Assembly: GCA_035550055.1 (NCBI GenBank)
Contig: DASZRO010000092.1
Span: forward strand, 2,637-66,636
DNA: 64,000 bases
Source of the DNA: Mycobacteriales bacterium
Lineage (GTDB): Bacteria; Actinomycetota; Actinomycetes; JAFAQI01
Reading direction: 5' to 3'
Part shown: piece after piece, positions 6,957 through 48,366 of the stretch
Layout of the letters: the number at the start of each line of letters is the position of its first letter
Position numbering within the stretch: the stretch's first letter is position 1
Notes under the pieces: model-generated
What the model was told of the DNA's origin: nothing
Seen by the model: the letters and a program-made list of their open reading frames with translations, nothing else
The model's database searches: none
Program-made: the position numbers and the translations under genes

Positions 6957-6987
6957 CGTCACGCGTCGTCACGCGAGACGTCCGCGG

Positions 6988-7788
6988 CTACGACGACCAG
7001 ACCGCGGCGTCGGCGTTGTCGAGCACCGCAGCGATTGCCGCGAGACCTTCGCGCAGCCGCGTACCGATGTCCTCGGCTCCCTCGACGACGAGCAGCCATC
7101 CGCGGTCGAGTGCGATCTGGTAACCGCTGGCGGCCGTGAAGCTGTTCTGGCGCTGGCTGACGTGAGTGGCGAGCAGCGCCTGCCGCACCCGGTCGTCGAA
7201 CAGCCGGCGCGCGAAGTCGGCGTCTTCAGCGGTGACCGAGAAACGGCTGTCGAACTGCGCGTCGCCGGTCTTCACTGACAGGAAGCGGTCGGCGACGAAC
7301 GCGGTCGTCGCGACGTTCACCAGCGCGCTCACCCCGCTGTAGCCGGTCACCGACACGGTCGGCGTGGTAGCGGCCGGGGAACGGACGGCCACGACCGACG
7401 TACGCAGCACCTCGGTGCCGGCGCCGGCGCTGGTGCGGTCGCGGCTGTGGCCGGTCCGCACGGTCCGCACGAACTCGAACGTGACGAAGTCGCGGCCGTC
7501 GCTGCGCCCGCTGACGACGTTGCGATGCGCGATCGTGCCGTCGAGGATCTGGACGTCACTGAACGGCCAGACCGACCAGCCCGGATCCACGCTCGCGTCG
7601 GTCGCTGCGAACCGGTAGCCGTTGTCCCGGGCGTACCGCTCCACCGCGTCGTTCTTGCGGGTACGACGGGCCCGGCGCCGCGAGTTGTCGAGCCGGTTGA
7701 GAACGAACAGAACGGCGAAGATCACGACCGCGACCCCGACGATCTTCGGCAGCGGCGTGCTGCCTAGTGACGATGCCCCCAGTCGCAC
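6988..7788 (-). CDS. membrane-anchored hypothetical protein
   Basis: Single N-terminal TM helix (IVGVAVVIFAVLFVL). No recognised catalytic motif. Confidence 0.4.
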   Translation of the reverse strand: MRLGASSLGSTPLPKIVGVAVVIFAVLFVLNRLDNSRRRARRTRKNDAVERYARDNGYRFAATDASVDPGWSVWPFSDVQILDGTIAHRNVVSGRSDGRDFVTFEFVRTVRTGHSRDRTSAGAGTEVLRTSVVAVRSPAATTPTVSVTGYSGVSALVNVATTAFVADRFLSVKTGDAQFDSRFSVTAEDADFARRLFDDRVRQALLATHVSQRQNSFTAASGYQIALDRGWLLVVEGAEDIGTRLREGLAAIAAVLDNADAAVWSS

Positions 7789-7850
7789 GGCCGAAGTGTA
7801 GGGGCAGAAACCGTTCGCGCCGTACCGCCAAGGAATGCCACGCTTCGGCC

Positions 7851-8441
7851 ATGTCGCTGCGGATCGGGATCGTGCTGTTCGACGGAGTGGAGGAGCTCGA
7901 CGCGGTCGGCCCGTGGGAGGTCTTCGCGGCGTGGTCGCACTACTTCCCCGCCGACGAGGTCGCGGTGAGCTGTCTCGCGCCGAACGGTGGGACCGTGGCG
8001 GCCGCGAAGGGAATGACGCTGACCGCGCATCACTCGTTCGCCGATGCCCCGGCGTACGACGTGCTGCTCTACCCCGGCGGGCAAGGGACCCGGCCGATGA
8101 TGAAGGACGAGCCGCACCTGGCGTGGGTGCAGGAGCAGCGCCGTGCCGTGCCCCTGATGACGAGCGTCTGCACCGGGGCGTTGGTCTACGCCGCCGCCGG
8201 GCTGCTGCGCAACCGTCCGGCGACGACCCACTGGGGATCGCTGGACCTGTTGCACGAGACCGACCCGACGATCACCGTCAGACCCGACGACCGTTACGTC
8301 GACGACGGCGACGTGGTCACGTCGTCCGGGGTCTCGGCGGGGATCGACATGGCGCTGCATCTGGTCCGCCGCTTCGCCGGCGAGGAGCGGGCCCGCGAGG
8401 TCCGCCGCGTCATCCAGTACGACCCGGCGCCGCCGGTCTAG
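7851..8441 (+). CDS. DJ-1/PfpI (ThiJ) family protein
   Basis: DJ-1/PfpI motifs (IGIVLFDGVEELDAVGPWEVF...SVCTGALVYAAAGLL...TSSGVSAGIDMALHLV). ATG at 7851 inside the longer 7767 ORF. Confidence 0.75.
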   Translation: MSLRIGIVLFDGVEELDAVGPWEVFAAWSHYFPADEVAVSCLAPNGGTVAAAKGMTLTAHHSFADAPAYDVLLYPGGQGTRPMMKDEPHLAWVQEQRRAVPLMTSVCTGALVYAAAGLLRNRPATTHWGSLDLLHETDPTITVRPDDRYVDDGDVVTSSGVSAGIDMALHLVRRFAGEERAREVRRVIQYDPAPPV

Positions 8442-9969
8442 GGACCCGCCAGCGGCAGCTCGATGCGGAACGTCGCGCCGTGGCCGGGTTCGGACTCCAC
8501 CGAGACGTGACCGTCGTGCGCCGCCACCAGGCCGGCCACGATCGACAGGCCGAGACCGCTGCCGCCGGCACTGCGGCTGCGCGATGGGTCGGCGCGATAG
8601 AACCGCTCGAAGACGCGCTCGGCGTCTTCCGGCGACAGGCCCGGGCCGGTGTCGGACACCCCGACCACAGCGCTCTTGGTCACCGCGTTGATCGAAACCG
8701 CAACCGTGATGATCGCGTCGTCCGGCGTGTGCACGAGCGCGTTCGACATGAGGTTGTGCACGACCTGGCGCAGTCGCGCCTCGTCACCGACGACGACCGG
8801 CGGGGTCGTCACGTCGGCGTGCAGCTCGATCGAGCGCGCCGGCGCGATCCGCCGGCTGTCCTCGACGACGTCGTGCGCGATGTCGAGCAGGTCGACGCGG
8901 CCTCGTTCCAGCGGTCGCTGCTCGTCGAGTCGCGCCAGCAACAACAGGTCGTCCACCAGCAAACCCATCCGGGTCGCCTCGTCCTCGATGCGCCCCATCG
9001 TGCGATCGAGCTCGGCGCCGGTAGTGGCTCCCATCCGGTGCAGCTCGGCGAAACCGCGAATCGAGGTCAGCGGCGTACGCAGCTCGTGGCTTGCGTCGGC
9101 GACCAGCCGGCGCATCCGCTCCTCCGACGCGGTCGCCCGCAGCTGCGACTCGCGCTCGTGTGCGAACGCGGACTCGATCCGGCCGAGCATGACGTTGAGC
9201 GCGTTCGAGAGCCGCCCGATCTCGGTGCGAGGATGGCGGTCCGGCACTCGCTGGGTCAGGTCACCCGCCGCGATCGCCGCCGCGGTTCGTTCGACCGCGA
9301 CCAGCGGCGCGAGCGATCGCCGGATCAGCAGGTAGCCGCCGCCTCCCATGAGCACCAGGATTCCGGCACCGATCAGGACCTCGAGCACGACGAGGTGGTT
9401 GACCGTGTGGTCGATGTCGGACAGCGAAGTCGCGATCTCCGCGACCCCGGACCCGTCGCCCGCTTCGACCGCGACGACCCGCCAGGCGCTCTTGTGGTCG
9501 GCCGCCGGGACGGTGAAGGGCTCGCCGTCGACCACCTGCTTCGACGTCGCCGTCAGCGCCGGCAGCACCGGCGGCGACTGGCTGGTGAGGAACGCCGAGT
9601 CAGGCCCCCCAGCGGGCGAGCCGGCGTCGTACAGGCGCACGTAGTACGGACTGGGCAACCGGCTCGGGTCGTCGCTTGTCGTCGTCGTCGGCGCACCGCC
9701 GGCGGGAACCGGAGTGCCGGCCAGGCCGCCGCCGGCGCCGAACCCGCCGCGGAACCGAAACCCATCGGCGATCCCGCGGGCGGCGACCTGTAGCTGCTCG
9801 TCGGCGCGGTTGAGCAGGTAGGAGTGCAGCGACGCCGTCGCGGCGACGGCGGCGCCGGTCAGGCCGACGGCGGCGAGCGCGAGAACCATCACCAACAGCT
9901 CGAGCCGCAAAGACATTCGCGCGAGGACACGCCGCAGCGGCGCCACCAGCGTCGCGAACCGGGAGCGCA

Positions 9970-9973
<4 letters not shown>
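8438..9973 (-). CDS. two-component sensor histidine kinase (HAMP-HisKA-HATPase)
   Basis: H-box SHELRTPLTSIRGFAELH plus N, G1 and G2 boxes (DTGPGLSPED, GGSGLGLSIV). Two TM segments flank the periplasmic loop. 4-bp overlap with the upstream response regulator. Confidence 0.85.
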
Positions 9974-10716
<743 letters not shown>

Positions 10717-10729
10717 CGTTCACTCTCCC

Positions 10730-12496
10730 TCAGCCTGCGGGCCCACCGAACGTCACCGCGCCGGGCTGGCCTTCGGTGCCGCCGGTGATGCGGCGGACGA
10801 ACTGACCACCGCCGGGGAAGGTGAAGCCGCCGTTGCCGAACGTCGCGCTGGTGTTGGAGCTCGAGCTCGGCACCGACGCGTTCAGGTCGGCGAGCACGAC
10901 GCGATCGCCTGCCGTGAGTCCGGACGTGATCTGGGTCAACGCCGCGCCGACCGCTGAGACCTTCACCGTCTTGCGGGTCACCTTGCCCGACTCGAGCAGC
11001 TCGACGTAGGTCGTCGTACCGCTGTAGTGGACGGCCGACGTCGGCACGGCCAGGACGTCCGCGACCGAGGCGACGACGACAGTCACCGACGCGGCGGCGC
11101 CGCTGACGACGCTCGTTGCGCCGGGCAGCGCGATGGTCACCGGGAAGGTGACGGAGCCGGCGGACGACTCGACCCCGGCCGTGTCCACGGAGACGACGTG
11201 TCCGGTGACGGCGTGGGTCGAACCGTCCGCCACCACATCCGCCGTCATGCCGTCGTGCACCTTGCCGATGTCGGCGGATGAGAGGTCGACGGTCACCTGC
11301 TCCTGGCGCGAGCCGACGATGACGAAGGCGGCGTTGCTCGACGACGCGGTCACCTGGTCGCCATGAGCGACCGTGACTGCGGCGACCCGACCGGCGATCG
11401 TCGCCCGCAGCGTCGCCTGCTCGAGGCTCGCCCGGTCGGCGTCGACGGTCGCCAGCGCCTGGTCGATCGAGGCCTGGTCGAGCGCGATGTCGGCAGCGCT
11501 GACAGCGGTCGTCGACGATCGTGACGGCTGCGACTTCGCCGCGTTGACCGAGCCACGGTTGGCGGCCGAGCTGTCACTCGCCATCGCGGTGAGGATCTTG
11601 GTCAGCGCGAGCTCTGCTTCGGAGACCTGTTGCTCGTCGCGGTCGACCTGCTGCTGCGCCGCGAGCAGCGCTGCGCCCGCAGACGTACACGCGTCGCCGC
11701 CGGCGGTGACTGGCGTCGATGCGGTGGGGTCGGGCGTGGCGCTGCCCGTCGGGTCTGGCGAGGCGCTCGGCGATCCGGACGCCGGCGGTGGGGTGGCCTG
11801 GTCCGACCCGCACGCGTCGTTCGCTGTCGCCAGAGCCTGGCTCGCCTCGCCGAGCGCCGCGTCGGTCGACTGCTGCGCGCTGCGCACCGCCGCCTGCGCT
11901 TCGCCGAGCCGGCCGGTCCCGGTTGCGCCGGCGGGCCGCCCGGTGGGCGGGGGCTGACTCGACACCGTCGAGGTGGCGACGACGTGCGGGTGGGCCGCTT
12001 GCAACGTCGGCGTCGTGGCGGCGGCTTCGTCGAAGGACCCGCCCGTCACGCTCTGACCCGTCTCGTCCGCAACCATGCGGCTACGGGCCTGTCCGAGCGT
12101 CGAGCGCGCGGAACGCAGTGCGCTTCGCAGCTGGCCGCGATCGAGGTGAGCCAGCACCTGACCGGCGCGGACGTGCTGACCGGTCTTCACGGCGACCCGC
12201 GCGACGGTGCCACTCACCTGGAACGACTCGTCGGCATGGGACACCGGGCTGACCGTTCCGGTCGCCGACAGCGTCTGCATCACGGTCGCCGGCGCGGCCT
12301 CCGCCGTCCGGTAGCGGGCATCGGCGCCGCGGGTCAGACCCCACGCCGTGCCGCCACCGGCGAGAACGAGCAGTACGGCGCCGCCCGCGACGACTCGCGC
12401 TCTGCGACGCGATCGCGGCTGCCAGGTGTCAGCGGTCGAGTCAGGCACCGCCGCCACCCTCCGGGAACCCGCCCGTGGCGAAGCGACCGCCGGCAA
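10730..12496 (-). CDS. efflux adaptor (membrane-fusion/HlyD-like) protein with long Pro/Ser/Thr-rich hairpin and Gly-rich C-terminal tail
   Basis: N-terminal TM anchor, biotinyl-lipoyl-like and beta-barrel segments, a long coiled-coil/PT-rich insert, and a GNGGFTFPGGG tail. Sits in the operon with MacB-like ABC genes. Confidence 0.65.
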   Translation of the reverse strand: MPAVASPRAGSRRVAAVPDSTADTWQPRSRRRARVVAGGAVLLVLAGGGTAWGLTRGADARYRTAEAAPATVMQTLSATGTVSPVSHADESFQVSGTVARVAVKTGQHVRAGQVLAHLDRGQLRSALRSARSTLGQARSRMVADETGQSVTGGSFDEAAATTPTLQAAHPHVVATSTVSSQPPPTGRPAGATGTGRLGEAQAAVRSAQQSTDAALGEASQALATANDACGSDQATPPPASGSPSASPDPTGSATPDPTASTPVTAGGDACTSAGAALLAAQQQVDRDEQQVSEAELALTKILTAMASDSSAANRGSVNAAKSQPSRSSTTAVSAADIALDQASIDQALATVDADRASLEQATLRATIAGRVAAVTVAHGDQVTASSSNAAFVIVGSRQEQVTVDLSSADIGKVHDGMTADVVADGSTHAVTGHVVSVDTAGVESSAGSVTFPVTIALPGATSVVSGAAASVTVVVASVADVLAVPTSAVHYSGTTTYVELLESGKVTRKTVKVSAVGAALTQITSGLTAGDRVVLADLNASVPSSSSNTSATFGNGGFTFPGGGQFVRRITGGTEGQPGAVTFGGPAG

Positions 12497-13388
12497 AGCC
12501 GCCGAAACCGCCGACCGCCGGCGCAGCCGGGCAGTTGCCGTTGACCGGGGAGCTGATCGACACCGATCGGGCGTCGAGGTTGCCGCTCACGTCGTCGCTG
12601 CCGACCGCGGTCACGCACTTGCCCGACTTCACGTCCGCGGCGGAGCCGGCGCTCGTCGCCTCGTACATCGTCGACGAGGTCGTCTTGACAGTGGTGGTCG
12701 TCGACGACCCGAACGGCGAGGTCACCGTGAACGAGGTGGCGGTGATCGATGCGATCGTGCCGAACGCGCCACCGAAGGCGCGACGGACGAAACCGCCACT
12801 GCCCGGCCCGAGTCGCGGAAACGCGCTGGTCGTCGGGAACGGCCTCGGTGTCCCGCCGTTCTCACCGAATCCTCCGGCCGGCGGGGTGAAGCCGCCGCCC
12901 GCGGGTGGCGTGAAGTTGCCACCGCCGGGAACCCGGCCGAACCCGCTGGGAGGTTGGCAGCCTGAGGTGCTGGTCACCGTGACGGTCTTCGCCGTGATCG
13001 TCGTGGGTGCCGCCGTCGCACCGTTGGTCGCCGCGCTGTCCGTCGTACCGGTCGACACCGTCACGCAGTCACCGGTCGCGAGCGCCGCGCGGGTCGTCGA
13101 CGCTGTCGTGGTGAAGCGGGTGTCGGAGCCGTAGTCGACCGTCGCCGGCCCGCTTGTCTGCTGGACCGCGGCGCTGGTCGCGCTGGACGCGATCACCTTC
13201 CCCGAGACCGAGGCGATCGAGACCGCGGAGCCGTTCGCGCTCGTACCGGTCGTCGACGACACCGACGACGGTGAGGACCCGCCACCGCAGGCGGCCAGCA
13301 GTGTGGCGAGAGCGGCGCCACCGCCGACGATCATCGCGAGGCGCGGCGTACGACGGCCGGTACGCGCCGGCGCTGCTGCTTCAGACAT
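12441..13388 (-). CDS. lipoprotein, Thr/Ser/Gly-rich (lipobox LLAAC)
   Basis: Signal peptide with lipobox (MIVGGGAALATLLAACGGGSS). The mature protein is low-complexity T/S-rich with a Gly-rich tail. An alternative start lies at 13406. Overlaps the downstream adaptor gene start by ~55 bp. Confidence 0.5.
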   Translation of the reverse strand: MSEAAAPARTGRRTPRLAMIVGGGAALATLLAACGGGSSPSSVSSTTGTSANGSAVSIASVSGKVIASSATSAAVQQTSGPATVDYGSDTRFTTTASTTRAALATGDCVTVSTGTTDSAATNGATAAPTTITAKTVTVTSTSGCQPPSGFGRVPGGGNFTPPAGGGFTPPAGGFGENGGTPRPFPTTSAFPRLGPGSGGFVRRAFGGAFGTIASITATSFTVTSPFGSSTTTTVKTTSSTMYEATSAGSAADVKSGKCVTAVGSDDVSGNLDARSVSISSPVNGNCPAAPAVGGFGGFAGGRFATGGFPEGGGGA

Positions 13389-13410
13389 GAGGACGGTTCG
13401 CTCCATTTCC

Positions 13411-14649
13411 CTACTCGGTTCGCAGTGCGTCGATCGGGGCGAGCCGCGCGGCCCTTGTCGCCGGGTAGACGCCGAAGCCGAGCGCGAGCACGACGGCGAC
13501 GGCGATCGCCGCGGCGGCGGCCAGCGGCGAGATGGAAATCGGGTCGGAGATGAAGTGCGGCAGCACCTCCGCGCCGACGATGCCGAGCACCACACCGAGC
13601 ACCCCGCCGGAGAACCCGAGCAACGAGGCCTCGAACAAGAACTGCCGGCGGATCGCCTTCGGCGTGGCGCCGAGCGCCTTGCGCAGCCCGATCTCCCGGA
13701 TTCGCTCGGTGACGGAGACGAGCATGATGTTCATCACGCCGATCCCGCCCACCAGCAGCGAGATGGCCGCGATGCCGGCGAGCAGCACGGTCAATGTCTT
13801 GCTGACGCTCGTCGCGGTCGAGATCAAGTTCTTCTGCGACGTGATGGTGAAGTCGGCGTCGGAAGCGTCGGTGATCTCGTGCAGCGCGAGGAGCTCGGCA
13901 TCCGCCTCCTGATATGCCGCGGAGATCGTGCTGCCACTGGTCGCCTCGAGGTAGATGTCGTTGACGGCGTTGCGGGAGTCCCCGCCGATCACCCGCGACG
14001 CCGCGGTGGTGATCGGGATGATCGCGGTGTCGTCCTGGTCCTGCGTCGACGACGAACCGCTGCCGACTGGATCGAGCACCCCCACGACCTGGAAGGGCAC
14101 CGAGCCGATCGTGACGGTCTGCCCGACCGGATCACGTACTCCGAACAGCTCGGATGAGGTGTCCGCTCCGAGCACCACGACGGCCGCCGAGGTCGCGACG
14201 TCGTCGGCAGTGAGGAAGCGACCTGACTCGACCGACCGCGCCCGGACCTGCAGCCAGCTGGGTGTCGCTCCGACGACCGAGGTGGTCCAGTTGGTCGAGC
14301 CCGCCGTCAGCTCCTGCACGGTCGAGCTGGTCGCCGCCACGGACTCGATGTCCGGTGCGGTCTGCTTCGAGCTCAGCGCGGCAGCATCCTGAGTGGTCAG
14401 CGTCGAGGCGGTGCCGAAGCCACCGCGAACCCCGGAGCTGCTGGTCGTGCTGCCGGGGGTGACGATCAGCAGGTTGCTGCCGAGGGCACTGATCTGGCTC
14501 TTCACCTGCTGTTGCGCGCCCTCGCCGAGACCGACGGTCAACATGACCGCGGCGATGCCGATCAGGATGCCGAGCATGGTCAGCAGCGAACGCAGCCGGT
14601 GCGACCGGACGGCGTCGAGTCCGGTCCGCGCGGTTTCCAGCCAGTTCAC
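13411..14649 (-). CDS. ABC transporter permease (FtsX/MacB family)
   Basis: MacB_PCD plus the FtsX 4-TM topology (N-terminal TM, large periplasmic domain, three C-terminal TMs with GVMNIMLVSVTERIREIGLRKALGA). Confidence 0.8.
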   Translation of the reverse strand: MNWLETARTGLDAVRSHRLRSLLTMLGILIGIAAVMLTVGLGEGAQQQVKSQISALGSNLLIVTPGSTTSSSGVRGGFGTASTLTTQDAAALSSKQTAPDIESVAATSSTVQELTAGSTNWTTSVVGATPSWLQVRARSVESGRFLTADDVATSAAVVVLGADTSSELFGVRDPVGQTVTIGSVPFQVVGVLDPVGSGSSSTQDQDDTAIIPITTAASRVIGGDSRNAVNDIYLEATSGSTISAAYQEADAELLALHEITDASDADFTITSQKNLISTATSVSKTLTVLLAGIAAISLLVGGIGVMNIMLVSVTERIREIGLRKALGATPKAIRRQFLFEASLLGFSGGVLGVVLGIVGAEVLPHFISDPISISPLAAAAAIAVAVVLALGFGVYPATRAARLAPIDALRTE

Positions 14650-15338
14650 TGCAGCCGCCCGTCCCGGATGTGCACCGTGCGCTGCGCGGTGGCCGCGACG
14701 TCGCCGTCGTGCGTGATGAGGACGACGGTGCGGCCGGCCCGATGCATGTCGTGAAAGACGGCCAGGACGTCCGCCGACGAGCCGGAGTCGAGGTTGCCGG
14801 TCGGCTCGTCGGCAAGGACGAGGTCCGGGTCGGTGACGATCGCGCGGGCGATCGCGACGCGCTGCTGCTGGCCGCCCGAGAGCTCTCCCGGCCTGTGGTC
14901 GAGGCGATCAGCCAGCCCGACCCGCGCCAGGGCCTCGGCGGCACGGTCGCGTCGCTCGCCGGGCCGGATGCCGGCGTACGTCAGGGGAAGCTCGACGTTG
15001 CGGAGTGCGGTCAGCGACGGCAACAGGTTGAACTGCTGGAAGACGAACCCGATACGGCGGTTGCGCACCTCGGCGAGGCGTCGCTCGTCCATGCGGGAGA
15101 CGTCCTCACCGCCGATCCGGTACTCACCGGAGGTCGGGACGTCGAGGCAACCCAGGATGTGCATCAGCGTCGACTTGCCCGACCCGGACGGGCCGACGAT
15201 CGCGACCAGGTCCGACGCGTCGATCGACAGCGACACGCCGCGGAGCGCCTCGACCTCCAGCAACCCCGAGCGGTAGGTCTTGTGAACGTCGGTGAGCGCA
15301 AGCACCGGGGCGGCGGGGCCCTCCATCACCGAGGTCAC
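14646..15338 (-). CDS. ABC transporter ATP-binding protein (MacB/LolD type)
   Basis: Walker [10 protein letters not shown], signature [14 protein letters not shown], Walker [14 protein letters not shown]-loop. Confidence 0.9.
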
Positions 15339-16510
15339 CCGTTGCCACCGAAGCTCGGCAGGCCACCGCCGTTGCCGCCGAAGCCAGGGAAGCCGCCGCC
15401 AGTGGAGCCGCCGCTGCCACCGAAGCCGCGGATGAAGGTGCCGCCGCTCCCACCGCCATTCGAGATCCGGCCGAAGGTCGGAATCGTCACGACGACCTGA
15501 TCTCCAGGCTTCAGGCCGGACTCGACGGCGGTCTGCAACCCGTACGTCTGCCCGACGGTGATCGTTCGCGTCTCGGTGCCGCTTCCGGTCTTGACCTTCA
15601 CGGTGGCGGTCGAGCCGTCGTAGGTGATGGCGAGGGTTGGGATCGCCAGCACGTCGACCGCCTTGCTGGTCGTGATCGTCAGCGTCGCGCTCGACCCGGC
15701 GTACACCCCGGTCGGGTGGCCCGACACGGTGACGGTGATCGGGAAGCTGACTACTCCCGAGGTCGTCGTCGGGACGGTGGTCACCGAGCTGACGGTGCCC
15801 GCGAGTGGGGCGGCAGAACCGGCCGGGGTGATCGCGACGGCCTGACCTTGCTTGATCTCGCTGATCTCGGTGTCGTCGACGGTGGCGTTGACGATGAAGG
15901 TCCGCGTCGACTGGACCGACACCTGCGCCGACGAGGCGCCATCGCTCGGCGACTGCGTGCCGTCACCCGACGAGCCGACCTGCTCACCGACGGAGAGGTT
16001 CACCGCGGTGACGGTGCCTGCGAACGTCGCCGTCAGACGGGCGTCAGCGAGATCCAGGTTCGCGGCGTGCAACGACGCACGGGCGGCGTCGAGGGCGGCC
16101 TCGTCGGAGGCCAGCTGCGCGGACCCGGCCGCATCGTCGTCGACCTTGTCGGCGTCGGCCGACACCGTCGCCTCCGCCGCGGCCCGCTGGGCGACCAACG
16201 AGGCGGTGCCCAGTCTCGCGAGGGTCTCGCCCTTCGTGACGACGTCGCCCGCCTTGACCCGCACCTGAGTGACGCGGCCGGACACGGCGAAGTCGAGGTC
16301 TGCCTGCTTCGCCGGCTCGATCGTCCCGGACGCCGACACGGTCTGCACGATCGTGGTCCGTTTCGCGGTGACGACCTCGGTGGTCGCGCCACCGGACTTG
16401 CTGCTCCACGGCTGAGTGGCGGCCAGCGCCGAGCCGGTGCCGAGCAAGGCGACGACGACGACCGCAACGACGACCCGGCCACGGGTCATTCTCGGGACAA
16501 CTCTTCGCAC
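15335..16510 (-). CDS. efflux adaptor (membrane-fusion/HlyD-like, MacA-type) protein with Gly-rich tail
   Basis: TM anchor, then lipoyl/beta-barrel-like segments. The C-terminal tail is [30 protein letters not shown]. First gene of the minus-strand operon. Confidence 0.75.
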   Translation of the reverse strand: MRRVVPRMTRGRVVVAVVVVALLGTGSALAATQPWSSKSGGATTEVVTAKRTTIVQTVSASGTIEPAKQADLDFAVSGRVTQVRVKAGDVVTKGETLARLGTASLVAQRAAAEATVSADADKVDDDAAGSAQLASDEAALDAARASLHAANLDLADARLTATFAGTVTAVNLSVGEQVGSSGDGTQSPSDGASSAQVSVQSTRTFIVNATVDDTEISEIKQGQAVAITPAGSAAPLAGTVSSVTTVPTTTSGVVSFPITVTVSGHPTGVYAGSSATLTITTSKAVDVLAIPTLAITYDGSTATVKVKTGSGTETRTITVGQTYGLQTAVESGLKPGDQVVVTIPTFGRISNGGGSGGTFIRGFGGSGGSTGGGFPGFGGNGGGLPSFGGNG

Positions 16511-17215: not shown

Positions 17216-17539
17216 AACGCAAGGTTACGGGGGCCGGTCCGCCGATCATGCAACTACCCGTACGTCGGCGCCGACCGCCTCGTAGGTGGGTGTCGCTCGC
17301 GCGTCACGCGAGCCGAGCGAGAGGTTCGCACCGACCGCGGCAAGGCCGCGCGTGCCCACTCAGAGCAAGATCGCACCCGAAAGCCCACTCGGCAACGGCG
17401 GCGTGAGCGGGATGCGAGTCATATCCCTCCGCCGATCCGCGGCCTTCAGGCCGCCGCTGACTAGTCATCCCGAGGGGGGCGGAAATGGTCGGAGTTCGTC
17501 AAGAGAGAGGGGGCCCGGCACGTCGATAGTGGCAACGAA

Positions 17540-18718
17540 ATGAACACCTTGTTCGGCGATGCCCGTATCCGACGGCGCGCGCGGTCGTTGAATGCGGGCC
17601 GCGACGCCGGCATGACGCTCGTCGAAATCGTGGTCGCCATCTCGATCGTCACGCTCGGTGTCCTCGCGTTGCTCAGCGCACTGGCGACCGGGATCCGGCA
17701 GCAGGGCCTCGAGAAGTCCCAGGCGACGGCGCTGCATCTGGCCGACAGTGCCATCGAGGCCGCAAAAGCGATGGCGTACTCGACACTCGTCGGCCAGGCC
17801 GGGACGACAACCACGGCCAACCCGGTGAACGGCGTGAGCTACACCGAGACCAAGACGTTCCAGGTCTGTTCGCCCACCGACGCCCCGACGACCTGCACGT
17901 CGCCCGGAGCGGGCGCGGTGTCGACGGTGCACGCCGACGTGTCGGTGCGCTGGAGCTTCGCCGGCAAGACCCACGTCGTGCAGGTGGCCCAGAGCGTGAG
18001 CGACCACAGCGCGCTCACCGTCAGCAGCGCGACGAGTCCCCTCGGCATCTGCGGTGGGGCAGGTACGACGCTGGTCATCGGCCAGCTCGGCCTCTCCCCG
18101 TCAAGCGTCACCGTCAACAAGACAGGCACGCCGTCGAGCGCCATAACCGCAACCCTCACCGAAACCGGGCTGTCCAACGCGACCTGCGTGCCGCTGACCT
18201 GGAGCGATGACAACGGCTCACACCAGGTCGCGATGACGCGGAGCGGGTCGACGTTCACCGCGACGATCCCCGCAAGCTCCATCACCAAAGCGACTCCGAC
18301 CAGTGGCGGGTCGATCGCGTTCACCGCGACAGTTCCCGGCAGCCAGGCCGTACCCGCCGCGACCCTCACGCTGATCGGCGCGCCGGCGTTCTCCGGCAAC
18401 TGCTCGATCTCCGTGGTCGGGCTCGGGCTCAACGTCATCACGCTGACACCGCTCACCCGCAACACCCTGCTGCCGGCCGGTCTGACCTGCACCACCGTGA
18501 ACCTGGCCAAGACCGACTCCGTCGTCGCGACGTACCAGAGCGGCACGGGCACGAAGAACCTCGCGATGACGAGCACAAACGGCTCGACCTGGACGGCGAC
18601 ACTGCCGAGTGGATCGGCGATGGTGAAGTCCGGCGTGTCCGAGGGTTTCACCTTCTCGCTGACGCGCGCAGCTGACGGCTCGACCGCGTCCCAGAACGTC
18701 ACGGCGACACTGGCATGA
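17540..18718 (+). CDS. type IV pilin-like protein (prepilin N-terminal cleavage/methylation signal), large Thr/Ser-rich (module A, gene 1)
   Basis: Class-III leader ending ...GRDAG|MTLVEIVVAISIV with Gly-1, Met+1 and Glu+5, followed by a hydrophobic helix. Cys-containing T/S-rich domain. Paralogous to 20810..22318. Confidence 0.7.
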   Translation: MNTLFGDARIRRRARSLNAGRDAGMTLVEIVVAISIVTLGVLALLSALATGIRQQGLEKSQATALHLADSAIEAAKAMAYSTLVGQAGTTTTANPVNGVSYTETKTFQVCSPTDAPTTCTSPGAGAVSTVHADVSVRWSFAGKTHVVQVAQSVSDHSALTVSSATSPLGICGGAGTTLVIGQLGLSPSSVTVNKTGTPSSAITATLTETGLSNATCVPLTWSDDNGSHQVAMTRSGSTFTATIPASSITKATPTSGGSIAFTATVPGSQAVPAATLTLIGAPAFSGNCSISVVGLGLNVITLTPLTRNTLLPAGLTCTTVNLAKTDSVVATYQSGTGTKNLAMTSTNGSTWTATLPSGSAMVKSGVSEGFTFSLTRAADGSTASQNVTATLA

Positions 18719-19323
18719 CCACGCGCTACGCGTCGGGACGAGACGCCCGGGACCGCGGCTTCACGCTGACCGAGACGCTCGTCGTGATCGTGCTGTTCGC
18801 GATCATCGGCACGATCGTCACGACGGCATCCGTCACGGGACTGCACAAGCAGACCCAGCTGCAGGACCGCAGCGACGTGCTCGCCCAGGCACGCACCGCC
18901 CTGGAGCGCATCGACCGCGACATCCGGTCGGCGAACCCGCTGCTGGCGGCCAGCTCGACACAGCTCGTGCTCCGCGAAGTCGAGCCAGCCCTCACCCGCA
19001 CGGTGACGTACGCGGTGAGCAGCCACCAGCTCGTCGCCCGCGAGACCGATGTCACCAGCTCCGGTGTCACGACCACGTCGACCACCGTCTTGCTGAAAAA
19101 CCTCGTGAACTCTGCGAGCAACCCGTTGTTCACGGCGTCCCCGACCCTCGGCTATGTGGCGCCGGCCGGCAGCGGCGTCAGCGCAACCACGTGCGCGATG
19201 ACCGGCGGCTTCGACCCGGGCTGCATCGGAAGCGTGACGGTTCACGTGATGGTCCAGCCGCCGACGCTGTCCACCGCGATCAGCATCAGCGACAACGGCA
19301 CCGAGCTGAGGAACGCGCCGTGA
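18715..19323 (+). CDS. pseudopilin / minor pilin-like protein (module A, gene 2)
   Basis: Leader ...DRG|FTLTETLVVIVLFAIIG (Phe+1, Glu+5). Shares the LERIDRDIRSANPL block with 22314..23010. ATGA overlap with the previous gene. Confidence 0.7.
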   Translation: MTTRYASGRDARDRGFTLTETLVVIVLFAIIGTIVTTASVTGLHKQTQLQDRSDVLAQARTALERIDRDIRSANPLLAASSTQLVLREVEPALTRTVTYAVSSHQLVARETDVTSSGVTTTSTTVLLKNLVNSASNPLFTASPTLGYVAPAGSGVSATTCAMTGGFDPGCIGSVTVHVMVQPPTLSTAISISDNGTELRNAP

Positions 19324-20627
19324 CCGGCGTACGCCGCGCTTCGCGGTACGACCACTCCCGCGACCGCGGCAGCATCATGCTGGCGCTGCTGGCGATCGTC
19401 ATCTTGAGCAGCGTGGTGTCGGTCGGGCTCGCGACCGTCATCAAGGGACAGGCGCAGACCCGGCACGACGATGCGTTCGCGCAGGCGCTGACCGGAGCAG
19501 AGACCGGCCTCGACACGATGGTGGCGCGGATCAAGGCGGCACCATCGGTCAGCAGCCAGGCCGCGATCACCGGCACGAACTCCGCGACCGGCGCGACGTA
19601 CCGGACGACGGCGACCGACACCGCAGGCGTGTGGTCGCTGGACTCGATCGGCACCGCGAAGACCCCGACCGAGACGATCACCCGAGAGGTTCAGGAGACG
19701 GTCGCGGTCAAGGGCCTCTACACCGTGCCGCTGTTCGGCAGCTCGGCACTGACCATGGGCTCCGGATCCGGGGTCAACGAGTACGACTCGGGGGCGACCG
19801 GCGGGGCGAGCACGACCACCTGCTCGGTGCTCCCGGACACCGGAGTCCTCGGGCTGCTGGCAACGACGATGTGCACGCCGACCATCTCCACCACCGGCCC
19901 GGCGGCCACCGACGGTGCGCTGACGATGGTCGGGTCCGATCTGTCGAACTTCAGCGAAGTGGACGTCGACGACGCGGCGCCGACCGGGTACGCCGACCCG
20001 GACGCGACCGGCACGTGTGTCGGGGACGCGTCGTCGTGCGCGTCGACGACGGTGGTCAGGTCGTCCCAGCCGCTGACCTACCCGGCGAGCACCGCCTGCT
20101 CCGCCGGAATCGGCGTCAACGCCTCCGCGGTCACGGGCTCGAACTATCTCGCGGCAGGCGCCGTCTACAACATCCTCGGGAACCTCACGCTCAACGCCGC
20201 GGTCACCGCGAACCTCACGAACCTGGCGTCCTCGGGCGTCACGCTGTGCTTCAACGGCAACCTGCTGGTCCCCTCGCTCGGCGCCGCCGGAGTGACCCTG
20301 CCGTGGAACAGCTACGTCAGCTCGGTGCTACCCCTCCAGTACGCGCCACGCCCACCGGCGACGCTGATGCTGATCGACACCGCAACCTCGGCCGGGTCCT
20401 CGACGATCACGATCGGCGACGGGTTGAACCCCGAGACCGTGCTGTCAGGTGTGATCTACGCGCCGAACGCCACCTGCGTCGTCAACGGCCACCTCGACCT
20501 CTACGGCACGCTGATCTGCGGGAGCGTCTCGGCGCCCGGCGGGGTCTCCGTGCACTTCGACAAGGAGCTGTCCACCATCACCACCGAGCAGACCGTGACG
20601 GTGTCCAACTGGCGGGAGGTCCGCTAG
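19320..20627 (+). CDS. PilX N-terminal domain-like pilus assembly protein (module A, gene 3)
   Basis: N-terminus ...DRGSIMLALLAIVILSSVVSVGLATVIKGQAQTRHDDAFAQAL resembles the PilX_N pattern. Paralogous to 23029..24525. GTGA overlap with the previous stop. Confidence 0.6.
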   Translation: MTGVRRASRYDHSRDRGSIMLALLAIVILSSVVSVGLATVIKGQAQTRHDDAFAQALTGAETGLDTMVARIKAAPSVSSQAAITGTNSATGATYRTTATDTAGVWSLDSIGTAKTPTETITREVQETVAVKGLYTVPLFGSSALTMGSGSGVNEYDSGATGGASTTTCSVLPDTGVLGLLATTMCTPTISTTGPAATDGALTMVGSDLSNFSEVDVDDAAPTGYADPDATGTCVGDASSCASTTVVRSSQPLTYPASTACSAGIGVNASAVTGSNYLAAGAVYNILGNLTLNAAVTANLTNLASSGVTLCFNGNLLVPSLGAAGVTLPWNSYVSSVLPLQYAPRPPATLMLIDTATSAGSSTITIGDGLNPETVLSGVIYAPNATCVVNGHLDLYGTLICGSVSAPGGVSVHFDKELSTITTEQTVTVSNWREVR

Positions 20628-20809
20628 GCCGATCGGCACGACCCAAGCACCCAATCGCTGCTCCGTTCGGCGCAGTTGGGAGCGTGTGGCGCCGATCGTG
20701 TACCACGTTTTCAGCCTCTTCTCAGGCTGGGTCTCGCATTCGGCGCACATTTTGTTAGCCATAACGGCGTAGCAGGTAGTGGTTTAGGGGCCTTACACAA
20801 GGCTTTCAA

Positions 20810-22318
20810 ATGTCCGATGCTTACTTCGTGGGAGTTTGGCGGCGATTTGTCCTGCACCGGGGGCGCGGTCGCGCCGTCGGCAACGCAGCCGACGCCGGCA
20901 TCTCGCTGGTCGAGATCCTGGTCGCCATCATCCTGTTGTCGGTCGCGCTGATCGGCACTGCCGGCGAGATCGCCGCCTACATCAAGCAGCAGGTCGTCGA
21001 ACGCAGCCAGATCACCGCCAATCATCTCGCCGACAGCTGGTTCGAGTACGCCGAGTCACTCGAGCACGGCGCGACGTCGGAAAGCGGTGACGGCGGAGCG
21101 GTCACCACGAGCATCACCCCGATCAGCACCACCACGACGACCACCACGAAGCAGAGCAACGGCGTCACCTATGTCGAGACGATGACGCCGCACATCTGCT
21201 CCCCGTCCCAGCTCGACGCCTCGAACTTCACGCTGTCGAAGTGCGTCGGCAACACCGTCAGCCCGGTCAACACGATCTACTCCACGATCACCATCAAGTG
21301 GACGCTCGGCGGCAGTTCGCACCAGCTGACCCAGACCCGCAACCTCGCCGACAACACGACCTTCAAGCCGGCGAACACCCCGTCCGCCAGCGACAACGGC
21401 CTGTCGAACTGCACTCGAGCCGGCACGGTGACGAGCTCGCTGAGCATCACCTCGCCCCAGACGACCACGAAGCACACCGTCACGCCGGCCTCGATCGGGC
21501 CCGCGTATCTCAACGGCGCCGGCAACCCCGCCGAGGACGGCAACGGCGCGGCGTTCTCCTCGGTGACCCTGACGCTGACCGAACACGGCCTGGTCAACAC
21601 CACCGACACGACGCAGACCTTCTTCGGCGCGGCCACGTGCGTGCCGCTGCTGTGGACCGACAGCACGGGCACGCACCAGGTCGACATGCACACCAGCGAC
21701 TGCGAGGCGACCGGCACCGTCACGCCCGCCAACTACACCAGCGCGACGTGCACCTACACGGCGTCCGTCCCCGCCTCGTCGATCACCGAGACCGGCCTGA
21801 CCTCGCCGTGGGACGCCACTGTGCCGTTCTGCGCCTACGTGTTGGCCCCGACCCCGCCCGCGACGTCGACCTGCACGACGACGACGGCGAACAGCGGGGT
21901 CGTCGCCGTGGCGCCGCTCAACGTCGCCGCCTCGCCCGTGCTCACCTGCACGCCCTACCCGGGGATGACCGTCTCGGCCACCGGGATTCTCGGGGTCAAG
22001 GATGCGGTCACCGCTCCGGTGACCGAGAAGTGCACGGCGTTGAACCTCGCGACGACGGACACCATCCAGGTGAGTGCCGTGAACACCACCGTTGCGAACC
22101 TGGTCTGGGTGCCCAAGAACAACGACTACGAAGGCCCCATCCCGAACCGCACGGTCGTCACCACGCCGAGCACCTGCGCGCTGGCGCTGTGCAACGTCAC
22201 CCTCACGTTCAGCACCACCCGCGCGCTCGACGGGGTGACCTCGAGCCTGCTGAACCCGCTCGTGGTGACCGGCGGCCTGGTGTCCCTCGGCACGTTCGTC
22301 GTGGTCGGTTCGCTGTGA
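20810..22318 (+). CDS. type IV pilin-like protein, large (module B, gene 1)
   Basis: Leader ...AADAG|ISLVEILVAIILLSVALIG (Glu+5). Cys/Thr-rich with many N-x-T/S. Paralogue of 17540..18718. Confidence 0.7.
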   Translation: MSDAYFVGVWRRFVLHRGRGRAVGNAADAGISLVEILVAIILLSVALIGTAGEIAAYIKQQVVERSQITANHLADSWFEYAESLEHGATSESGDGGAVTTSITPISTTTTTTTKQSNGVTYVETMTPHICSPSQLDASNFTLSKCVGNTVSPVNTIYSTITIKWTLGGSSHQLTQTRNLADNTTFKPANTPSASDNGLSNCTRAGTVTSSLSITSPQTTTKHTVTPASIGPAYLNGAGNPAEDGNGAAFSSVTLTLTEHGLVNTTDTTQTFFGAATCVPLLWTDSTGTHQVDMHTSDCEATGTVTPANYTSATCTYTASVPASSITETGLTSPWDATVPFCAYVLAPTPPATSTCTTTTANSGVVAVAPLNVAASPVLTCTPYPGMTVSATGILGVKDAVTAPVTEKCTALNLATTDTIQVSAVNTTVANLVWVPKNNDYEGPIPNRTVVTTPSTCALALCNVTLTFSTTRALDGVTSSLLNPLVVTGGLVSLGTFVVVGSL

Positions 22319-23010
22319 GCCGGCACTGGGACGCCGACGGCGGCTACACGCTCGTCGAGATGCTGGTCACGATCATCATGCTGACGTTGATCACCGGCTC
22401 CATCACGGCCGTGGTGATCACCAGCCTCAAGCACCAGAACTCGCTTCAGGTACGAGGCTCGGTGCTGGCCAGCGTCCGGTCATCGCTCGAGGACATCGAC
22501 CGGGACATCCGCTCGGCCAACCCGCTGTGCTACGCGACCGGCACCGAGATCACCATGCTCGAAAGCAAGGAGACCTCTCCGGTCCAGACGCCCGTCATCG
22601 TCGACTACAAGGTGCAGGGCACGAAACTCGTCTACACGCAGTACAACGTGGTTTCGACCGTCGTCCCGCCCGCCACGGCGCCGGCGAACTACACCTGCAG
22701 CGTCGCCAAGACCACGGGCACGCTCACCTCGACGACGTACTACACCGAGCTCACGCCGATCCGCTCCCAACGCACCGTCATCAGCAACCTGACAGGAAGC
22801 ACGTCGACGATCTTCGCGCTGCCGGGCGCCCCGACGTTCAACACCTGCCCGGCGCCGGTCAACGTCCCGAACGCGCTGACCCAGGCCGCAGCGATGGCCA
22901 TCCAGGAGCTCACGGTCAGCGTCTCGGTGCAGCCATCAACCCTCAGCAGCCCGGTGTCGGCGTCGGACTGCGGCACGTACCTCCGCAACTACGCAGTAGC
23001 CACCTCGTAG
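22314..23010 (+). CDS. pseudopilin / minor pilin-like protein (module B, gene 2)
   Basis: Leader VSRHWDADGG|YTLVEMLVTIIML (Glu+5). LEDIDRDIRSANPL block. GTGA overlap with the previous gene. Confidence 0.7.
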
Positions 23011-23028
23011 GGACAGGACAGGATCCTC

Positions 23029-24525
23029 ATGCGAGCTTTCTATCTCCGGGACCTCAGGGACGATCGCGGCAGCATCATCCTTGCCCTGCTCGGCATCATC
23101 ATCCTCACGACGGTCGCCAGCGTCGGGCTGGCCGCCGCGGTGAACGGCCAGGGCCAGGCGCGCCACGACAACACGTTCACGCAGGCGCTGGACAACGCCG
23201 AGAGCGGCATCGACGCCATGGCCGCGACCATCAAGGGTGCAACTGCCAACGGGACGACCGACTACTACAACAGCCCGGGTGCCAGCGCACCACCGAAGCT
23301 GACCCTGTCCGGCGCGTACTCGGTCGTCGCCAAGAAGGTCAACCAGATCGGGCAGACCGGCAGCGCGTCGGCGTCGGTGTGGACCATCCAGTCGACCGGT
23401 ACGGCGGTGACCCAAGGACGCACGATCACCCGGGTCGTCACCGAGACGCTTACGGTCGCCCACACGTACAACGCCCCGCTGGAGGGCTCGAACGGCATCA
23501 ACCTCGGCTCGACCGGCAACAGCGTCAACAACTGCAGCGCGTGCGTCGGCGCCGGCGCCGTCAACGACCCGACGGTGATCTCGAAGGGGATCACCGTGCC
23601 GATCCTCGGCACACTCGGGTCCACGACGATCACCGACCCGCCCGGCGACAGCAGCCCCAACTCGACCCCGGGCGCCGCGGAGACCGGAGGACAGCTCGTG
23701 CTCCAGGGCGGTGACCTGCAGAACTTCGCCCAGGTCGCGCTAGACCAGGGCGGCACGTCCAACGGCTCGTGCAAGAGCACCTCCGACGTGTGCAACTCGA
23801 CCACCGTCGTCACCCAGGCCACCCAGGCGCCGGCGATCACGACTCCTGGTTGCCTGCCGGGCGCCATCGGTGCCGCGCTGAACGGAGTCGGCCTGTCGTT
23901 GCCGGACCCGCTCGGGGTGGTGCTCAACACCAACCTGGTGGCCAAGCTCGACGCTCAGCCGCCGATCGCTGACACGGTGTGCACCAACCTGCCGATCATC
24001 ATCCCGACCATTGGGACCACCCTGTCGTCGCTGCCGCTGATCGGGGGCCTGACCAACCTGACCGGCCTCGACGCCAGCCTCGACGCACCCATCGGCGCGG
24101 ACTGCCTGACCAACGGCGTGCAGTCGGTGCTGACCACGCTCGCCAGCGGCGCCAACCTCACCTGCACGATGGACCCGCCGCAGGACCTCGTCATCAACAA
24201 CGTGTCCAACCTCAACAACGACGGCACGTGCTCGGGTACCGGGTCGAGCGTGTACCTGGGAACCGGCACCACGGGCTCGCCGCCGGCGTACGTCTCGGCG
24301 CTGATCAACAACCCGTGCGGCAACTGCCAGATCACCGGCAACGTCGTGCTGTACGGCGCGCTGGAGTGCGCCACCATCACGGTGCCCCCGGGCTCGACGC
24401 TGACGGTGGAGTACCCGACCGACCAGGGCCTCACCGCAGGGCAGACCACGCACCTCGACACGGTGTCGAACTGGAACGAGTGCGAACCGGCGACGTCGGT
24501 CAGCGTCTGTCAACCGATCTCCTAG
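23029..24525 (+). CDS. PilX N-terminal domain-like pilus assembly protein (module B, gene 3)
   Basis: N-terminus MRAFYLRDLRDDRGSIILALLGIIILTTVASVGLAAAVNGQGQARHDNTFTQAL is near-colinear with 19320..20627. RBS-like aggacagg lies upstream. Confidence 0.65.
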   Translation: MRAFYLRDLRDDRGSIILALLGIIILTTVASVGLAAAVNGQGQARHDNTFTQALDNAESGIDAMAATIKGATANGTTDYYNSPGASAPPKLTLSGAYSVVAKKVNQIGQTGSASASVWTIQSTGTAVTQGRTITRVVTETLTVAHTYNAPLEGSNGINLGSTGNSVNNCSACVGAGAVNDPTVISKGITVPILGTLGSTTITDPPGDSSPNSTPGAAETGGQLVLQGGDLQNFAQVALDQGGTSNGSCKSTSDVCNSTTVVTQATQAPAITTPGCLPGAIGAALNGVGLSLPDPLGVVLNTNLVAKLDAQPPIADTVCTNLPIIIPTIGTTLSSLPLIGGLTNLTGLDASLDAPIGADCLTNGVQSVLTTLASGANLTCTMDPPQDLVINNVSNLNNDGTCSGTGSSVYLGTGTTGSPPAYVSALINNPCGNCQITGNVVLYGALECATITVPPGSTLTVEYPTDQGLTAGQTTHLDTVSNWNECEPATSVSVCQPIS

Positions 24526-24546
24526 GTAGGCCGATCGGGCGAGCGG

Positions 24547-43667: not shown

Positions 43668-43674
43668 CCGCTCG

Positions 43675-46427: not shown

Positions 46428-46501
46428 CGCGGGGTGGAGCAGCTCGGTAGCTCGCTGGGCTCATAACCCAGAGGTCACAGGTTCAAATCCTGTCCCCGCT
46501 A
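46428..46501 (+). tRNA. tRNA-Met (CAT), initiator-like (three G:C pairs in anticodon stem, C1xU72 unpaired); no encoded CCA
   Basis: The cloverleaf folds by hand: acceptor cgcgggg/ccccgct, D-arm gagc..gctc, anticodon stem ctggg/cccag with loop ctCATaa, T-arm acagg ttcaaat cctgt. Confidence 0.85.
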
Positions 46502-48360: not shown

Positions 48361-48366
48361 CGCGAA

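Follow-up and report, generated by a model that had tools for sequence, protein, structure and literature searches.

Two Paralogous Triplets of Type IV Pilin-Like Genes in an Uncultured Actinobacterium: Candidate Minor-Pilin Tip Complexes

Organization of the Locus

We analysed a 64-kb stretch of DNA, hereafter the window, whose source lineage is an uncultured soil actinobacterium. Two paralogous gene triplets lie in it, module A (17540-20627) and module B (20810-24525), with all six genes on the + strand (table 1); a public assembly of the same organism has the same six gene calls. The start of A2 overlaps the stop of A1 by 4 nt. Pairwise alignment pairs the modules gene for gene and over the full length of the proteins: A1 and B1 share 31% identity (E 7e-37), A2 and B2 33% (E 5e-25), and A3 and B3 31% (E 2e-38). 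A preliminary description of this DNA had proposed six co-directional genes, a module B that is a diverged copy of module A, blocks of sequence common to both and a shared 3' flank, and all four points are borne out. The quoted blocks occur in both modules, and the flank corresponds to a 12-bp direct repeat, TAGGCCGATCGG, with exactly two occurrences in the window (20625 and 24527), one at the 3' end of each module. Two random 60-mers drawn from the window share an exact 12-base stretch with an empirical P of ~0.0005. From 24527 onward, the sequence corresponds to what directly succeeds the A3 stop in a relative that lacks module B. No direct repeats were found around the second module in other genomes, which makes the 12-mer a peculiarity of this one. 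Scans of the locus for promoters, terminators, and Rfam families were all at background: neither a sigma-70-type consensus site nor an Rfam match was found between folE and A1, and neither a consensus promoter nor a terminator in the spacer between the modules.

Table 1. Features of the two-module pilin-like locus (window coordinates)
Feature	Coordinates	Strand	Description
folE (minus strand)–A1 intergenic region	17216..17539	+	Presumed promoter region of module A
A1	17540..18718	+	392 aa; leader ends ...RDAG|MTLVE; PilV/GspI-like modular minor pilin
A2	18715..19323	+	202 aa; G|FTLTE; type IV pilin-like minor subunit; conserved block ERIDRDIRSANPL
A3	19320..20627	+	435 aa; ...DRG|SIMLALL, without Glu5; PilX/ComZ-type capping subunit
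12-bp direct repeat TAGGCCGATCGG, copy 1	20625..20636	+	Contains the A3 stop codon
A–B spacer, 182 bp	20628..20809	+	Visibly richer in AT than the genes on either side; presumed to hold a promoter of its own for module B
B1	20810..22318	+	502 aa; G|ISLVE; A1 paralogue; 12 Cys; C-terminal domains with insertions
B2	22315..23010	+	231 aa; G|YTLVE; A2 paralogue; block LEDIDRDIRSANPL in common with A2
B3	23029..24525	+	498 aa; ...DRG|SIILALL, without Glu5; A3 paralogue; 14 Cys
12-bp direct repeat TAGGCCGATCGG, copy 2	24527..24538	+	2 nt past the B3 stop

Prepilin Motifs and Composition

As had been read from the sequence earlier, A1, A2, B1, and B2 begin with class III signal peptides, that is, Gly at -1, a hydrophobic residue at +1, Glu at +5 (G|MTLVE, G|FTLTE, G|ISLVE, and G|YTLVE, respectively) and a stretch of ~20 hydrophobic residues. 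The Gly-1/Glu+5 motif is retained in nearly all A- and B-type orthologues recovered from related loci. With the Pfam N_methyl family (PF07963, cut-off 21.2 bits), A2 alone scores above the cut-off (28.9), while A1 (20.3), B1 (17.7), and B2 (15.3) fall just under it. The AlphaFold models obtained for A1 and A3 both show a lollipop fold, a long N-terminal helix on an antiparallel beta-sheet.

The number of Cys residues is even in every protein (6, 2, 8, 12, 4, and 14 from A1 to B3), which we count in favour of an extracytoplasmic location as a likely signature of it, and Ser plus Thr make up 22-28% of the six proteins. The Cys content and the richness in Ser and Thr had been remarked on previously. 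The supposed richness in N-x-S/T is an effect of composition: 30 sequons were observed versus 25.3 in shuffles (P = 0.17), and an enrichment of N-glycosylation sequons is rejected.

The Three Subunit Classes

The best-scoring families for the first subunit are PilV (TIGR02523; A1, E 2.4e-6, 28.1 bits; B1, E 1.2e-3, 19.4 bits; cut-off 52.2) and GspI (TIGR01707; A1, E 4.6e-6, 27.1 bits; cut-off 44.35). Neither A1 nor B1 reaches the curated cut-offs, though the small four-strand head fits these families. In the A1 model (pLDDT 77.7), a helix (residues 27-77) is followed by a four-strand sheet (88-154) and by beta-sandwiches at 180-279 and 289-390, and the PDB matches of the model are to RbmA and Ig-type domains. 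As modelled, A1 is predicted to be a small PilV/GspI-like pilin head carrying two Ig/FnIII-like domains. Compared by sequence with solved structures, the profile of this class matches at the N-terminal helix only. In public sources the homologues of A1 are labelled "PilV family" or "PulG".

For the second subunit, A2 exceeds the cut-off of TIGR02532 (26.8 bits) in addition to that of N_methyl, and all 12 members of the class that were scanned match N_methyl. More specific families score below cut-off, namely GspH (E 8.3e-5) and GspJ (E 0.026) for A2, and the HpsC pseudopilin (residues 6-103, E 6.1e-6) and GspJ (E 0.068) for B2. The Pfam family T2SSJ is matched by a single one of the 12 (E 0.21), and against solved pilins the class profile aligns at the N-terminal helix only (MshA, E 4.7e-5). 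The PilV, GspI, GspH, and HpsC matches, all of them below cut-off, nevertheless reach past the 25-residue signal. A2 and B2 may be a second kind of minor pilin with Glu5, of either the PilW/GspJ or the GspH type, and the PilW/GspJ-like label in particular is tentative.

The third subunit differs at its N-terminus. Read directly, A3 and B3 carry ...DRG|SI(M/I)LALL, a prepilin-like sequence in which Gly-Ser leads into a hydrophobic helix and Ala replaces Glu at +5, as in a capping minor pilin. All 55 sequences of the cap family share Gly17-Ser18, and conservation of Ala22 (+5) among them is 90% or more, so that Glu5 is absent. In its C-terminal part A3 matches Pfam DUF7305 (PF23981; 36 bits vs. 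a cut-off of 27), as do 43 of the 55 family members at E ≤ 5. B3 has no DUF7305 match and by itself no Pfam family over cut-off; it aligns to the cap-family profile with E 9.5e-120, the profile having been built from 12 sequences that include B3. The N-termini of these two proteins had been described as PilX_N-like. Pfam PilX_N (PF14341) matches 0 of the 55 members even at E ≤ 5, and membership of that family is therefore ruled out; what stands is a likeness to PilX in architecture. It is indicated indirectly, by Gly-1, the lack of Glu5, the apparent role as capping subunit and a distant relative (P0084) in which DUF7305 and PilX_N occur in one protein, encoded by the last gene of a stand-alone four-gene pilin operon. 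With hhalign, the alignment is limited to the C-terminal DUF7305 part.

The A3 model (pLDDT 81.7, pTM 0.70) comprises a helix (14-73), four strands (83-132), a mostly beta region (138-414) and a last strand (424-434). A3 is thus modelled as a pilin helix and sheet followed by a large beta-solenoid with the DUF7305 C-terminal part. At E ≤ 0.001 its only PDB matches are two chains of ComZ (6qvi; E 1.1e-4, prob 0.97), with a low TM of 0.21 and 12% identity; the order of the elements fits a beta-solenoid inserted before the C-terminal strand. By sequence, the cap-family profile matched no solved structure. Several of the eight Cys of A3 are invariant across the cap family.

Conservation among Relatives

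Module A occupies the same slot between folE and the ABC1 kinase gene in every close relative with both flanks on the contig, and it is conserved in at least 13 genomes. Its dN against the three closest relatives (0.09-0.24) is within the range of the neighbouring housekeeping genes. Module B is found in some relatives only and is 3.5-6 times more diverged than module A. A dN/dS test of positive selection on module B was rejected because dS is saturated: the values for comparisons between paralogues (0.75-0.86) equal those of most comparisons between orthologues.

Search for Pilus Machinery

Genes for a pilus ATPase, a platform protein, a prepilin peptidase, or a major pilin were found neither in the 64-kb window nor in the 10 kb on each side of the triplet in related loci. 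More specifically, the window yielded neither a PilB/TadA-type P-loop ATPase nor the A24 peptidase motif, and Pfam searches of most of its large ORFs, ~30 further ones included, gave nothing pilus-related. Pattern searches of the window and 28 loci for the PilB/TadA P-loop, the A24 motif, and a TadE-type N-terminus returned MacB-type ABC ATPases only, the simple pattern used for TadE-type N-termini finding none. Within the cluster there is neither a FimU/GspH-type fourth subunit nor PilY1. The distant relatives (loci L016-L021, L024, and L027) are likewise all stand-alone triplets or quartets with no adjoining machinery. The earlier statement that no ATPase or peptidase lies nearby thus extends to the whole window, and the arrangement is not unusual. 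Minor-pilin operons commonly lie apart from the machine genes (PMC7541494; bioRxiv 10.64898/2026.02.12.705559), and with minor-pilin sets that stand alone or in several copies established for both Myxococcus and cyanobacteria, the absence of an ATPase is no anomaly. We assume that the genes for the ATPase, platform, peptidase, and major pilin lie in another part of the genome.

Comparison with Known Systems

Each module runs in overlapping reading frames from a small subunit of I/PilV type, through another subunit with Glu5, to a large cap that lacks it, and in this it resembles the GspI-GspJ-GspK tip complex of type II secretion and FimU-PilVWX of Pseudomonas aeruginosa. In contrast to those systems, the family matches here are below curated cut-offs and the cap is a predicted beta-solenoid; the domain inserted in GspK is largely alpha-helical.

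Two diverged minor-pilin tip sets are an arrangement already known in other bacteria. In M. xanthus, which has three minor-pilin/PilY1 clusters, several paralogous sets serve one machine and one major pilin; either of two clusters alone is enough for piliation, and the complex primes assembly and remains at the tip (PMC7541494). A Myxococcus cluster encodes PilY1 in addition to four minor pilins, and its PilX carries Pfam PilX_N, whereas the present modules have three genes, no PilY1, and no PilX_N match. A further parallel is offered by the cyanobacterial PilV-PilW-PilX-FimT sets, which Schuergers et al. (2026) divide into "Com" and "EPS" types. Cyanobacteria likewise have two diverged core sets per genome, often away from the machine loci and with no PilY1, and their PilV and PilX subtypes co-vary. 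Cyanobacterial PilX has a beta-solenoid architecture and is a proposed plug replacing PilY1 (bioRxiv 10.64898/2026.02.12.705559). Unlike these sets, the modules described here have three genes each and no FimT/GspH-type adaptor, stand in tandem at one locus, include a PilV-like subunit with two extra, predicted Ig-like domains, and come from an uncultured actinobacterium. Sequence similarity to the cyanobacterial proteins is undetectable except for the weak HpsC match.

ComZ of Thermus thermophilus (PDB 6qvi), which the predicted A3 may resemble, is a large protein whose pilin framework incorporates a beta-solenoid, and it is too bulky for any place but the filament tip (PMC6561018). The combination of a pilin module with extra domains in A1 and B1, here a predicted head with two Ig/FnIII-like domains, recalls PilB of the monoderm Streptococcus sanguinis, where the additional domains are adhesive (PMC8179133); the domains of the S. 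sanguinis modular pilins are of vWA (PilB) or lectin type, not Ig-like as predicted here.

Proposed Role and Alternative Explanations

The motifs, homology, sub-cut-off family matches, DUF7305, and two structure models agree with the preliminary reading of duplicated triplets of a large pilin, a pseudopilin, and a PilX-like protein. We consider it likely that each triplet encodes subunits like PilV, PilW, and PilX that together prime a type IV filament and form its tip. A PilD-type prepilin peptidase would cut A1, A2, B1, and B2, all of which have Glu5, behind Gly-1, and probably both caps too. Joined in the membrane through their N-terminal helices, the three subunits would then make up a complex that primes the major pilin for polymerisation. 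The major pilin, like the ATPase, platform, and peptidase, would come from genes elsewhere in the genome, and the complex would finish at the tip of the filament. In that position, the beta-solenoid of the third subunit might act as a plug and as a ligand-binding surface, with the two Ig-like domains of the first pointing outward. The two modules could provide alternative tips for one machine, module A representing a conserved housekeeping tip and module B a fast-diverging, dispensable variant of different binding specificity.

In an alternative scenario, which we think unlikely, the triplets would form a competence (DNA-uptake) pseudopilus and not a tip for general adhesion or motility; its beta-solenoid subunit, placed at the tip, would be a DNA receptor similar to ComZ. 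ComZ is indeed the only significant solved match of A3 and binds DNA at the pilus tip (PMC6561018), and one of the two cyanobacterial minor-pilin sets is dedicated to natural transformation (bioRxiv 10.64898/2026.02.12.705559). However, that match is distant, beta-solenoid PilX proteins also occur in the motility and EPS sets of the same study, and comEA, comEC, and comG genes were not found in the window. Furthermore, ComZ binds DNA via lysines, whereas both caps are acidic (D+E 31 vs. K+R 18 in A3, 32 vs. 14 in B3), which does not suggest DNA binding. Quite unlikely, in our view, is that the proteins are secretion-type pseudopilins (T2SS-like or akin to cyanobacterial Hps) forming a short piston inside the envelope and not an external pilus. 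The match of B2 to HpsC, the weak ones of A1, A2, and B2 to GspI, GspH, and GspJ, and the public labelling of homologues as "type II secretion system protein" or "PulG" point in that direction, but the scores are all below curated cut-offs and such labels are generic names for prepilin-type proteins. Moreover, genes for a secretin, GspE, GspF, or GspL/M were not found nearby, and large Ig-like and solenoid domains are more readily explained at an exposed tip than in a periplasmic piston.

Tad/Flp is the most common type IV filament system in Actinobacteria. The triplets could accordingly be imagined to serve Tad/Flp machinery, or to be orphan genes with no cognate machine, and the lack of T4aP-type machinery anywhere in the sequence searched (the window and related loci) is in keeping with either; we nonetheless hold both to be very improbable. 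The G|(F/M/I/Y)(T/S)L(V/T)E motif and the N_methyl matches are a PilD-type signature, and the pattern search gave no TadE-type N-terminus. Orphan relics are unlikely since module A persists in so many genomes with a dN like that of its housekeeping neighbours. In line with the Tad/Flp option, type IV filament systems of Actinobacteria are in many cases Tad-like or unclassified; T4aP systems, a precedent for the main reading, are also found in this phylum (PMC6668835).

Returning to the reading of two tip complexes, a further proposal, to which we give a small chance of being right, is that lineages gain, lose, and swap whole tip-complex modules at the second slot, which lies between A3 and the ABC1 kinase gene and would be a hypervariable cassette site. 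If so, each strain would have its own pilus-tip specificity, which could concern the targets it adheres to or its escape from phages that bind pili, with module A keeping the machine in operation. More boldly, T4a-style tip complexes could be placed in a lineage with Tad-type machinery only.

The two-tip reading opens no new mechanism, and its value hinges on a pilus machine existing in these genomes. It would extend to uncultured Frankiaceae-like Actinomycetota two features previously described in Thermus, cyanobacteria, and Myxococcus, a beta-solenoid cap replacing PilY1 and several tips for one machine, and the conserved module A beside the fast-diverging, dispensable module B would make a natural case for studies of selection on pilus tips. 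DUF7305 proteins, on which our literature search found no papers, would gain a working name as the C-terminal part of a pilus-tip cap. In public metagenomes the cap family comprises ~1,100 cluster representatives, mostly unnamed.

Organization of the Pilin Locus

The six co-directional genes of the preliminary description are all present on the plus strand at 17540-24525 of the window (table below), and its reading of them as tandem pilin-like triplets is real and correct in outline. The sequence, about 70% G+C, derives from an uncultured actinobacterium that bears the label "Mycobacteriales bacterium" and whose close relatives are labeled Frankiaceae or Frankiales, and the public assembly of the same organism carries six identical gene calls. 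By their coordinates, A1/A2, A2/A3, and B1/B2 overlap by 4 nt, and modules A and B are set apart by a more AT-rich spacer of 182 bp. The triplets are flanked on one side by folE (GTP cyclohydrolase I, minus strand); the other flank holds an ABC1 kinase gene and, beyond it, citrate synthase. The folE-A1 interval of the window is a 324-bp spacer only, whereas in four related loci (L012-L015) it holds a 530-aa gene, methylmalonyl-CoA mutase-like by eye from its sequence (~6480-8072, L013 coordinates). Upstream of folE, a minus-strand block (8438-16510) encodes a histidine kinase and response regulator, two membrane-fusion proteins, and a MacB-type ABC transporter; its synteny with the pilin locus is kept in close relatives, and no functional link is evident.

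Genes of the pilin modules and of the downstream minus-strand cluster (window coordinates)
Feature	Position	Strand	Length
A1	17540-18718	+	392 aa
A2	18715-19323	+	202 aa
A3	19320-20627	+	435 aa
B1	20810-22318	+	502 aa
B2	22315-23010	+	231 aa
B3	23029-24525	+	498 aa
AAA_23 ATPase	51474-53774	minus
ResIII/DEAD helicase	53848-56043	minus
PAPS-reductase-like protein	56004-56951	minus
Protein without Pfam match	56837-60589	minus	1250 aa
DUF4007	60379-61593	minus
Class-V aminotransferase, cysteine desulfurase-like	61416-62816	minus

Subunits of the Triplets

The Gly-1/Glu+5 signal motifs noted earlier can be read in A1 (G↓MTLVE), A2 (G↓FTLTE), B1 (G↓ISLVE), and B2 (G↓YTLVE), in each case ahead of a hydrophobic helix, and the G↓xxxxE pattern is repeated in nearly all orthologs recovered from related loci. 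A2 scores above the curated cut-offs of both Pfam N_methyl and TIGR02532, with A1, B1, and B2 just under them. The number of cysteines is even in each of the six proteins, as expected of disulfide-bonded exported proteins. The reported richness in N-x-S/T holds in that sequons are many, but composition accounts for them (30 observed vs. 25.3 expected, P = 0.17).

The top family matches of A1 are PilV and GspI, both under cut-off, and public pipelines name its homologs "PilV family," "prepilin-type ... protein," or "PulG." Its structural model (pLDDT 77.7) joins the pilin helix to a small head of four strands, with two Ig/FnIII-like sandwiches in addition. The C-terminus of B1 is a hydrophobic tail, LLNPLVVTGGLVSLGTFVVVGSL (22250-22318), which is missing from A1 and from the PilV-like proteins found between A3 and the ABC1 gene (the second slot) in two related loci, L007 and L009; the overlap with the start of B2 may have produced this tail as an artefact, or it may represent a membrane segment. 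A2 and B2 are pilin-like, with weak matches to GspH, GspJ, and the cyanobacterial pseudopilin HpsC. When their profile is compared with solved pilins, the N-terminal helix is the sole part matched, and the profile matches leave both a PilW/GspJ-like and a GspH-like identity for this class.

In A3 and B3 the N-termini read DRG↓SI(M/I)LALL. Among 55 relatives the Gly-Ser is invariant and Ala+5 at least 90% conserved, so that these proteins lack the Glu5 seen in pilins that polymerise. PilX_N, to which their N-termini had been likened, is detected in none of the 55 members. However, a distant relative bearing PilX_N and DUF7305, the last gene of a stand-alone four-gene pilin operon, is homologous to the family in its C-terminal part (hhalign, 97.7% probability). 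Pfam DUF7305 itself is detected in A3 (36 bits vs. a cut-off of 27). The A3 model (pLDDT 81.7, pTM 0.70) comprises a pilin helix (14-73), four strands (83-132), a long beta-rich region (138-414), and a last strand (424-434). At E ≤ 0.001 its sole match among solved structures is ComZ (two chains), the tip pilin of Thermus thermophilus that carries a beta-solenoid; E is 1.1e-4 and prob 0.97, although TM is 0.21. EpsI and XcpV follow, weakly. An exhaustive profile search places the family at ~1,100 cluster representatives (E ≤ 0.001). Among the matches listed, most of the more distant ones align in two stretches, the N-terminal 160 and the C-terminal 100 residues, which points to the middle of the putative solenoid as the variable part; nearly all of ten distant matches sampled are unnamed metagenomic proteins. 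In one distant MAG (L021, 10001-11288), the A3-like gene matches in two pieces in different reading frames (10001-10270 and 10275-11288), possibly through a frameshift, pseudogenization, or assembly error.

Divergence of Modules A and B

Pairwise alignment bears out the proposal that module B is a diverged copy of module A: the genes are full-length paralogs in the same order, with identities of 31% for A1/B1 (E 7e-37), 33% for A2/B2 (E 5e-25), and 31% for A3/B3 (E 2e-38). The shared 3' flank was also recovered, as a 12-mer, TAGGCCGATCGG, found at just two places in the window, one at the end of each module (empirical P ~0.0005). These direct repeat copies (20625-20636 and 24527-24538) enclose module B and the spacer, 3,902 bp copy to copy. 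In L006, a related locus without module B, the sequence directly after the A3 stop is that following B3 in the window; thus, the repeat brackets exactly the extra segment. A repeat of this kind is absent in the other two-module genomes. Taken together, repeat and junction suggest that this segment was recently inserted, deleted, or exchanged as a cassette in the window genome.

Close relatives with both flanks on the contig carry an A-type triplet between folE and the ABC1 gene (53-85% identity). A second module accompanies it in the window, L007, L009, and L012, and is absent from L006/L010, L013, L014, and L015. Neighbor-joining trees of the A1/B1 and A2/B2 classes place second-slot modules in a long-branched clade of their own, which falls outside the A clade and also outside the single triplets carried by more distant Frankiales MAGs. 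For the window compared with L009, dN is 0.09-0.16 for A genes, like neighboring genes, and 0.43-0.55 for B genes, values that do not tell fast evolution from cassette replacement since dS is saturated. The distant loci L016-L021 and L027 have one triplet apiece, in unrelated neighborhoods.

A Putative Minor-Pilin Complex

The triplets fit the well-known core minor-pilin complex composed of PilV/GspI, PilW/GspJ, and a Glu5-less cap, PilX/GspK. Such a complex primes a type IV filament and then remains at its tip. Several minor-pilin sets serve one machine in Myxococcus xanthus (PMC7541494), and in cyanobacteria two sets prime two kinds of pili (2026 preprint, 10.64898/2026.02.12.705559). The same preprint describes cyanobacterial PilX subunits with a ComZ-like beta-solenoid, proposed by its authors to be a plug in place of PilY1. 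T4aP systems are also present in Actinobacteria (PMC6668835). Given this fit and these precedents, we consider it likely that module A represents a conserved tip complex and module B a variable alternative tip of the same presumed machine.

As the preliminary description had it, no machine lies nearby: neither the 64-kb window nor the 28 related loci fetched yielded a PilB/TadA-type ATPase, a PilC, an A24 peptidase, or any further pilin. Tad-dependent or orphan genes would be one reading of the locus, and a competence-specific DNA receptor or a secretion pseudopilus others; all have less support than the alternative tips proposed here, and minor-pilin operons normally have no ATPase close by. 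Three points are of modest interest: the beta-solenoid cap design would extend to Actinomycetota, DUF7305 gains a working annotation, and a stable module contrasts with a fast-diverging one at a single locus.

Signaling proteins such as PAS-GGDEF-EAL and cyclic-nucleotide-binding types often regulate pili. The window encodes one of each (43354-46374 and 2593-3015, respectively), with no evident link to the pilins.

A Probable Downstream Genomic Island

At a tRNA-Met gene (46428-46502), G+C falls from ~0.70 to 0.62-0.68 (46428-64000). The region downstream is probably a genomic island with a defence system, its minus-strand cluster (51474-62816) being what we take to be a DNA phosphorothioation-type system, like Ssp/Dnd.
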